From the NCBI RefSeq assembly GCF_003018255.1, contig NZ_CP027440.1: a DNA stretch of 64,000 nucleotides; one strand, written 5' to 3'. The translations under genes and the position numbers were made by a program. Source of the stretch: Escherichia coli. Lineage in GTDB: Bacteria; Pseudomonadota; Gammaproteobacteria; Enterobacterales; Enterobacteriaceae. Each line of letters starts with the position of its first letter. The first letter of the stretch is position 1. The notes below the pieces were generated by a model. It was not told the origin of the DNA, did not search any database, and saw only the letters and a program-made list of their open reading frames with translations. Below are positions 58,413 through 58,583 of the stretch, one piece after another.

Positions 58413-58583
58413 TTATTCTACCTTTTCGGCTGTCTCTTCTCTCGTACTGTTTAAGTATTTGTTCCGCGCTTCAAGCAGTGCGTCTCTGTCCTGGCGAAAC
58501 GCCCGACAATAACGTTTCAAATGCAGGAAATAACCCACCACAACAAGAGCAATCAATACAATCCAGTACCAGGCGATAAACAT
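58413..58583 (-). CDS. Putative small single-pass membrane protein (56 aa from ATG; track ORF 64 aa from TTG)
   Basis: One strongly hydrophobic segment (FIAWYWIVLIALVVVGYFL) followed by a charged tail; AGGG upstream of ATG; no family recognised. Confidence 0.4.
   Translation of the reverse strand: MFIAWYWIVLIALVVVGYFLHLKRYCRAFRQDRDALLEARNKYLNSTREETAEKVE

Follow-up and report, generated by a model that had tools for sequence, protein, structure and literature searches.

The small membrane protein gene yqiD in the zupT–ribB region of Escherichia coli: frame-specific selection, allele classes, and candidate regulatory elements

[quoted passage not shown] The ORF occupies positions 58413..58583 on the minus strand, with the ATG at 58583-58581 and the stop codon ending at 58413, and encodes the protein MFIAWYWIVLIALVVVGYFLHLKRYCRAFRQDRDALLEARNKYLNSTREETAEKVE, which is identical in 56 of 56 positions to the YqiD sequence given in Table 1 of PMC6001520. 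The RefSeq CDS "protein YqiD" (WP_000469266.1), taken from a 100%-identical record, maps exactly onto window positions 58413-58583, and the UniRef name of the encoded protein is YQID_ECOLI. The counterpart in K-12 MG1655 is b4756/YP_009518818.1 at 3183381-3183551; the YqiD of E. coli K-12 has the same sequence, position, and orientation between zupT and ribB, and the gene itself shows no difference. When the intergenic region was compared by megablast with 5,426 complete E. coli genomes, the match overlaid a CDS annotated as "yqiD: protein YqiD". This intergenic query is 100% identical to JNE23-011 over 521 bp, and for the majority of the other E. coli genomes, an MC4100 strain derived from K-12 among them, the identity over the same query is ~98%. 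The original prediction, made from the sequence alone, had correctly delineated a 56-aa ORF at 58413-58583 (it lies on the minus strand) and had described it as unassigned, which is wrong given that yqiD (b4756) is annotated at exactly these coordinates.

YqiD is also already known at the protein level: it has been named, annotated, and experimentally verified. In K-12 MG1655, YqiD was detected by immunoblot following chromosomal SPA tagging (VanOrsdel et al. 2018, PMC6001520), as one of 36 small proteins detected in this manner (PMC6001520), and, according to the authors, yqiD is also a match in tetracycline ribosome profiling (VanOrsdel et al. 2018, PMC6001520). By the same account, the proteins positive in profiling, YqiD among them, are for the most part abundant during normal growth in LB (PMC6001520). 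Synthesis of YqiD in the window strain is assumed, given that the CDS, the Shine-Dalgarno (SD) sequence, and the leader are the same as in K-12. Ribosome profiling and tagged expression, the two experimental approaches that the original prediction had proposed for this ORF, are thus both positive in the literature (tetracycline profiling and SPA-tag immunoblot, respectively; PMC6001520). Of the suggestion that this could be an unannotated small membrane protein, one half holds and the other does not: the protein is real, as indicated by its conservation, a dN/dS of ~0.065, the start codon and SD sequence, and the published detection, but it is not unannotated, considering the RefSeq entry for yqiD, the UniProt entry YQID_ECOLI, and the published study (PMC6001520).

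The discovery value is small because the gene had already been named, annotated, and experimentally verified, and what is added here is supporting detail, namely, the measures of selection, the extent of the family, the existence of two alleles, the insertion hot spot between ribB and yqiD, and the palindrome kept across genera. The residual value is that YqiD is a well-behaved case among orphan small membrane proteins, its gene belonging to the near-universal E. coli core and showing strong purifying selection. Added to this are several handles: a conserved CRP/FNR-type palindrome at the edge of the putative promoter, a conserved surface that consists of TM residues and KRYCRAFRQDRDAL, and a persistent, non-obligatory pairing with zupT. 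The coding region and its translation signal are as follows.

58413..58583, minus strand: yqiD CDS, 56 aa plus stop; residues 2-22, predicted hydrophobic TM helix; residues 23-45, conserved basic/amphipathic juxtamembrane helix (KRYCRAFRQDRDALLEAR); residues 46-56, variable acidic tail
58591..58595, minus strand: Shine-Dalgarno-like AAGGG, 7 nt before the ATG; TAAGGGTAAAAGG-ATG is kept across genera; putative SD, judging by sequence

Scanning one genome per species yielded 27 loci from Escherichia spp., many Citrobacter, two Salmonella lineages, Intestinirhabdus, and one Enterobacter. An intact, ATG-started yqiD ORF of 56-60 codons is present in all 27 of these loci, and in all except that of Enterobacter, the ATG is preceded by a TAAGGGTAAAAGG-like element. 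The longest frame in the ORF listing encodes 64 aa and begins at an upstream TTG. An in-frame start 24 nt before the ATG is found in some species, and this frame is closed by a stop codon in 10 of 28 loci, so that no start other than the ATG at 58583 is available in every locus.

The median Nei-Gojobori dN/dS is 0.065 for codons 1-45, where the alignment is gap-free, with synonymous sites saturated between genera; the variable columns are distributed among the three codon positions as 23/18/39. As a control, pN/pS was compared between frames: the value is 0.14 in the yqiD frame vs 1.2-2.4 in four other frames, and the antisense frame in which the third codon positions fall on those of yqiD gives 0.28. 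In at least four genera, yqiD is kept by purifying selection that is strong and specific to its frame. The conservation and Ka/Ks analyses envisaged in the original prediction are therefore both positive, with the frame intact in 27/27 species loci and the dN/dS given above for codons 1-45. The alternative that the same prediction left open, a spurious ORF, that is, a chance open frame in the non-coding DNA between zupT and ribB, is refuted, and we assign it next to no probability: the small size of only 56 codons and the failure to match any Pfam or NCBIfam model above the cut-off would be compatible with such an origin, but the ORF is uninterrupted in all 27 species loci, its ATG and SD are conserved, the selection is frame-specific, with dN/dS of 0.065, and the chromosomally tagged protein has been detected (PMC6001520).

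The single hydrophobic helix and the charged tail that were originally predicted for this protein are both recovered in the hydropathy and charge profiles. The most hydrophobic 19-residue window of YqiD comprises residues 2-20, which are uncharged and have a mean Kyte-Doolittle hydropathy of 2.43. Residues 1-22 contain no K/R, residues 23-33 include 5 K/R, for a net charge of +4, and the last 11 residues are net acidic. AlphaFold2, with a 21-sequence alignment, models residues 2-55 as one continuous helix with a mean pLDDT of 73, and 84-88 in the TM part. Given that all the positive charge follows the TM segment and that a hydrophobic residue comes right after the Met, the positive-inside rule suggests the N-out/C-in orientation. 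YqiD is thus predicted to be a bitopic inner-membrane protein, with the N-terminus at the periplasmic face and the C-terminal ~34 residues forming a cytoplasmic helix.

The invariant or near-invariant residues of YqiD are M1, F2, I3, A4, W5, Y6, W7, L10, I11, G17, Y18, and H21, followed by the block K23 R24 Y25 C26 x A28 F29 R30 Q31 D32 R33 D34 A35 L36 L37 E38. The positions of the five-basic-residue cluster after the TM segment are invariant or nearly so across genera, and the tail beyond residue ~45 varies in both sequence and length. Cys26 is nearly invariant within the core clade, and neither Cys26 nor His21 is kept in all distant members. A His21/Cys26 zinc site was considered and dropped because each of the two residues is missing from some distant members.

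Searched with a profile, 1.84 billion cluster representatives yielded a YqiD family of 23 clusters, in which the distant members keep the signature R/K-R-x-C-R-A-[FY]-R-Q-[DE]-R-[DE]-A-L. In Pfam and NCBIfam scans of YqiD and five homologues, no model reached its cut-off. The assignments that were considered and rejected at this step are DUF2621 (19.8 bits vs a cut-off of 27.7), NF038143 (HYxxLL; 18.2 bits vs a cut-off of 50), and DUF4381 and DUF6526 (both below the curated cut-offs); because these matches differ from orthologue to orthologue, we read them as compositional. A profile search of PDB sequences retrieved no YqiD relatives at E <= 1. UniRef and NCBI sources give the label DUF4051 to members of both E. 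coli yqiD allele classes (see below) as well as to the Citrobacter and Salmonella orthologues. No DUF4051 row was obtained from Pfam-A for 6 YqiD members even at E <= 10, and the DUF4051 model seems to be absent from the Pfam copy used, so that membership in DUF4051 is taken from the source names.

Within E. coli, two yqiD allele classes account for 5413 of the 5426 complete genomes, the K-12 type in 4424 and a divergent type in 989, which makes yqiD a near-universal E. coli core gene. The divergent allele, examples of which are found in strains Z1323CEC0015 (L002 2438-2608) and DA33135 (L030 9058-9228), shows ~66% protein identity to the K-12 type and has a different C-terminal tail. This allele is plainly yqiD, yet in the ~18% of complete E. 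coli genomes that carry it, the annotation reads only "hypothetical protein", which is an annotation inconsistency. One sequence (P0013) is an apparent recombinant that combines the N-terminal half of the minority allele with a tail of the K-12 type.

The two flanking hairpins of the original prediction were both found, one on each side of yqiD, and the Rfam search of the neighborhood added two matches, of which one is significant.

58365..58395, minus strand: hairpin after the yqiD stop codon, common to the convergent zupT; 13-bp stem, terminator-like; -25 kcal/mol, z -4.1 (minus strand), and -22.8 kcal/mol, z -5.1 (plus strand)
58783..58814, minus strand: ribB intrinsic terminator, hairpin plus U-run; 13-bp stem; upstream boundary, outside yqiD; found only in loci with ribB as the immediate neighbor
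59602-59750, minus strand: FMN riboswitch RF00050, 120.9 bits, E 5e-29; located ahead of ribB, where it would be expected
58776-58846, minus strand: sub-threshold match to Rfam STnc240 (an enterobacterial sRNA), 27 bits vs the gathering threshold of 55, E 0.39; covers the ribB stop codon and terminator

The STnc240-like match may represent an RNA derived from the ribB 3'-UTR or a mere resemblance between terminators. On the yqiD strand, the downstream hairpin is followed by a partial U-run; the zupT strand lacks one, so that zupT transcription may enter yqiD in the antisense direction (window 58356-58412, plus strand).

In both the window and K-12, ribB and yqiD are encoded on one strand, 261 nt apart, with ribB upstream. 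yqiD is convergent with zupT in 27/27 species loci (ZupT identity 88-100%), whereas ribB lies within 2.5 kb upstream of yqiD in only 15/27 loci and is absent from this region in 12/27. The convergence of yqiD and zupT is also kept in two loci of distant homologues. Another distant homologue, P0141 (53 aa; L032 3951-4112, in the Logan assemblies L032-L034), is located between assT-dsbL-dsbI and ygiC-ygiB, with no Zip gene (zupT) or ygiD within 4 kb.

The gap between ribB and yqiD is an insertion hot spot. In DA33135, which carries the divergent allele, an opposing four-gene chaperone-usher fimbrial operon (L030 9807-14779) splits yqiD from ribB by ~5.6 kb; the major subunit encoded in this operon is 60% identical to K-12 YgiL. 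Strains with the minority allele carry an operon of this kind in the gap, and a fimbrial operon is located between yqiD and ribB in ~18% of E. coli genomes. Elsewhere in this region, K-12 has ygiL-yqiG between ubiK and glgS (L038 3115-4201); the window strain contains neither ygiL-yqiG nor a fimbrial operon in the ribB-yqiD gap, and glgS directly follows ubiK (59812-60412).

Upstream of yqiD, the following elements were identified.

58686..58701, no strand: perfect 16-bp palindrome TATGATCAAAATCATA, TGA-N6-TCA, of the CRP/FNR-family type; centered ~110 nt upstream of the ATG; candidate regulator-binding site
58655..58682, minus strand: candidate conserved core promoter, with -35-like TTGTTC (58677-58682), a 16-nt spacer, and -10-like TATGAA (58655-58660); a tentative reading made by eye
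58696..58725, minus strand: alternative sigma-70-like promoter, TTGATA, 18 nt, TATGAT; 10/12 matches; the -10 element overlaps the palindrome
58636..58653, minus strand: possible leader hairpin ATATCC-GAAAAA-GGATAT, AU-rich; pairing in 78% of cells, with both sides changed at 3 pairs

In alignments of the upstream regions, conservation starts abruptly at TATGATC(A/G)AAATCATA (58686-58701), that is, at the palindrome, and continues for ~110 nt to the ATG; beyond this point, the sequences are unrelated. The conservation from the palindrome to the ATG spans Escherichia, Citrobacter, Salmonella, and Intestinirhabdus, whatever lies further upstream. The palindrome occurs once in the 64-kb window vs ~0.06 occurrences expected, contains a GATC Dam site, is absent upstream of the distant homologues, and is not conserved beyond the Escherichia-Citrobacter-Salmonella group. 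A perfect TGA-N6-TCA at the upstream edge of a conserved promoter region resembles the arrangement in class II CRP/FNR-dependent promoters and, if the conserved TATGAA is the -10 element, the center of the palindrome would be ~42-46 bp from the transcription start. The half-sites, aTGAT/ATCAt, match neither what we take to be the FNR half-site (TTGAT) nor what we take to be that of CRP (GTGA), differing at the discriminating position.

By eye, the alignments show a TTGTTY ... TATAxx pair that is kept between genera. The sigma-70 promoter found by scanning at 58696..58725 is retained only as an alternative given that one such site was found vs 1.8 expected in shuffled sequences and that its -35 element is not conserved outside E. 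coli. Some of the changes in the leader inverted repeat look compensatory in sequences of the C. amalonaticus type, and the repeat is broken in many sequences of the C. freundii group; RNAalifold predicted no structure for the yqiD leader alignment.

Altogether, yqiD appears to be its own transcription unit, with a putative promoter just downstream of the candidate CRP/FNR-type palindrome and the end at the hairpin shared with zupT. What suggests this organization is that conservation begins at the palindrome regardless of the upstream context, that ribB is often not within 2.5 kb, and that, in some genomes, an opposing fimbrial operon intervenes. Upstream non-coding variants shift yqiD expression concordantly in a GWAS, a promoter model, and a GFP reporter assay (bioRxiv 10.1101/2025.06.10.658842), and such variant-sensitive expression fits an autonomous promoter. 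Alternatively, most yqiD expression could come from a ribB-yqiD transcript, of which yqiD would be the distal gene, under the control of the FMN riboswitch. The two genes are indeed on the same strand, with yqiD 261 nt downstream of ribB, and some terminator read-through is always possible, but this scenario appears improbable to us: a good ribB terminator separates the two genes, ribB is not a neighbor in 12/27 loci or in ~18% of E. coli genomes, the conserved ~120-nt block with the palindrome travels with yqiD, and the non-coding region upstream of yqiD drives reporter expression, in a manner sensitive to variants (bioRxiv 10.1101/2025.06.10.658842).

A possible hint at regulation comes from enteroaggregative E. 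coli 042, where Orf3334 (CBG36162.1, "DUF4051 family") is one of only three qRT-PCR-validated genes that are upregulated in the aar mutant (PMC5570504). Given that the sources label members of both E. coli yqiD allele classes as DUF4051, Orf3334 probably is yqiD. If so, this observation would hint at control linked to Aar (AraC negative regulator)/H-NS, considering that Aar acts on H-NS in the model put forward in that paper (PMC5570504).

Searches of the literature for b4756, for DUF4051, and for zupT and ribB together with small proteins retrieved no functional study of YqiD, and the searchable literature yielded no account of its membrane fractionation, its topology, a partner, or a phenotype. 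Taking YqiD as a real protein, we favor, with modest confidence, the possibility that this putative bitopic inner-membrane protein acts by binding a larger membrane protein. The TM helix of YqiD would pack against the larger inner-membrane protein and modulate its activity. The distribution of the conserved residues points in this direction: most invariant residues belong to the TM helix (I3, W5, W7, G17, Y18, H21) or to the juxtamembrane KRYCRAFRQDRDAL, with the remaining tail drifting freely. AcrZ, MgtS, MgrB, and CydX are characterized small membrane proteins that modulate a larger inner-membrane protein. YqiD resembles these proteins, as well as KdpF, in its size class, the single TM helix, and the focus of conservation on TM and juxtamembrane residues, but shows no sequence similarity to any of them, so that the analogy is one of working principle, not of family membership.

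The gene neighborhood weakly points to ZupT as the only partner candidate. Under this more specific hypothesis, YqiD would be a dedicated accessory or regulator of the metal importer ZupT, with the TM helix packing on ZupT and the basic cytoplasmic helix tuning transport. The convergent arrangement with a common hairpin in 27/27 loci and in two distant homologue loci, the repeated disruption of the ribB side by insertions, unlike the zupT side, the invariant TM residues, and the near-invariance of Cys26 in the core clade all are compatible with such a role. We nevertheless consider a dedicated role in ZupT function rather unlikely because a convergent, non-operonic adjacency with a ~57 bp gap may persist merely for lack of room for insertions, and because in one lineage, the homologue has no Zip gene within 4 kb. 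Furthermore, ZupT is far more widespread than the 23-cluster YqiD family, which counts against a dedicated partnership.

In its size and single TM helix, YqiD also resembles type I toxin peptides, such as those of the Hok, Ldr, Ibs, and TisB types. Under the corresponding hypothesis, YqiD would be a membrane-damaging peptide restrained by an antisense RNA, which convergent zupT transcription could provide because the hairpin between the two genes lacks a U-run on the zupT strand. The evolutionary and expression data make a toxin highly improbable: the gene is present in one copy, keeps its synteny, and has been inherited vertically across genera, and the long hydrophilic helix predicted to be cytoplasmic is under strong purifying selection; no Rfam antitoxin sRNA was detected in 57400-60200, where the FMN riboswitch is the only significant match; and the profiling-positive proteins, including YqiD, are mostly abundant in normal LB growth (PMC6001520), unlike a toxin.

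The binding of a larger inner-membrane protein is our preferred reading of YqiD function. In a bolder version, to which we give a low probability, a metal or respiratory membrane system, most likely that of ZupT among the guesses, would have YqiD as a regulated accessory subunit, switched on via the candidate CRP/FNR-type palindrome, the invariant TM residues and the KRYCRAFRQDRDAL helix being the interaction surface. If this were the case, divalent-metal uptake would be tied to oxygen or carbon status in the Escherichia-Citrobacter-Salmonella clade.

One sequence from the metagenome/assembly collection (P0151, 125 aa) consists of the first ~70 residues of ZupT joined to a YqiD-like C-terminal part. 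Most likely, this is an assembly or gene-calling chimera of the two convergent neighbors.
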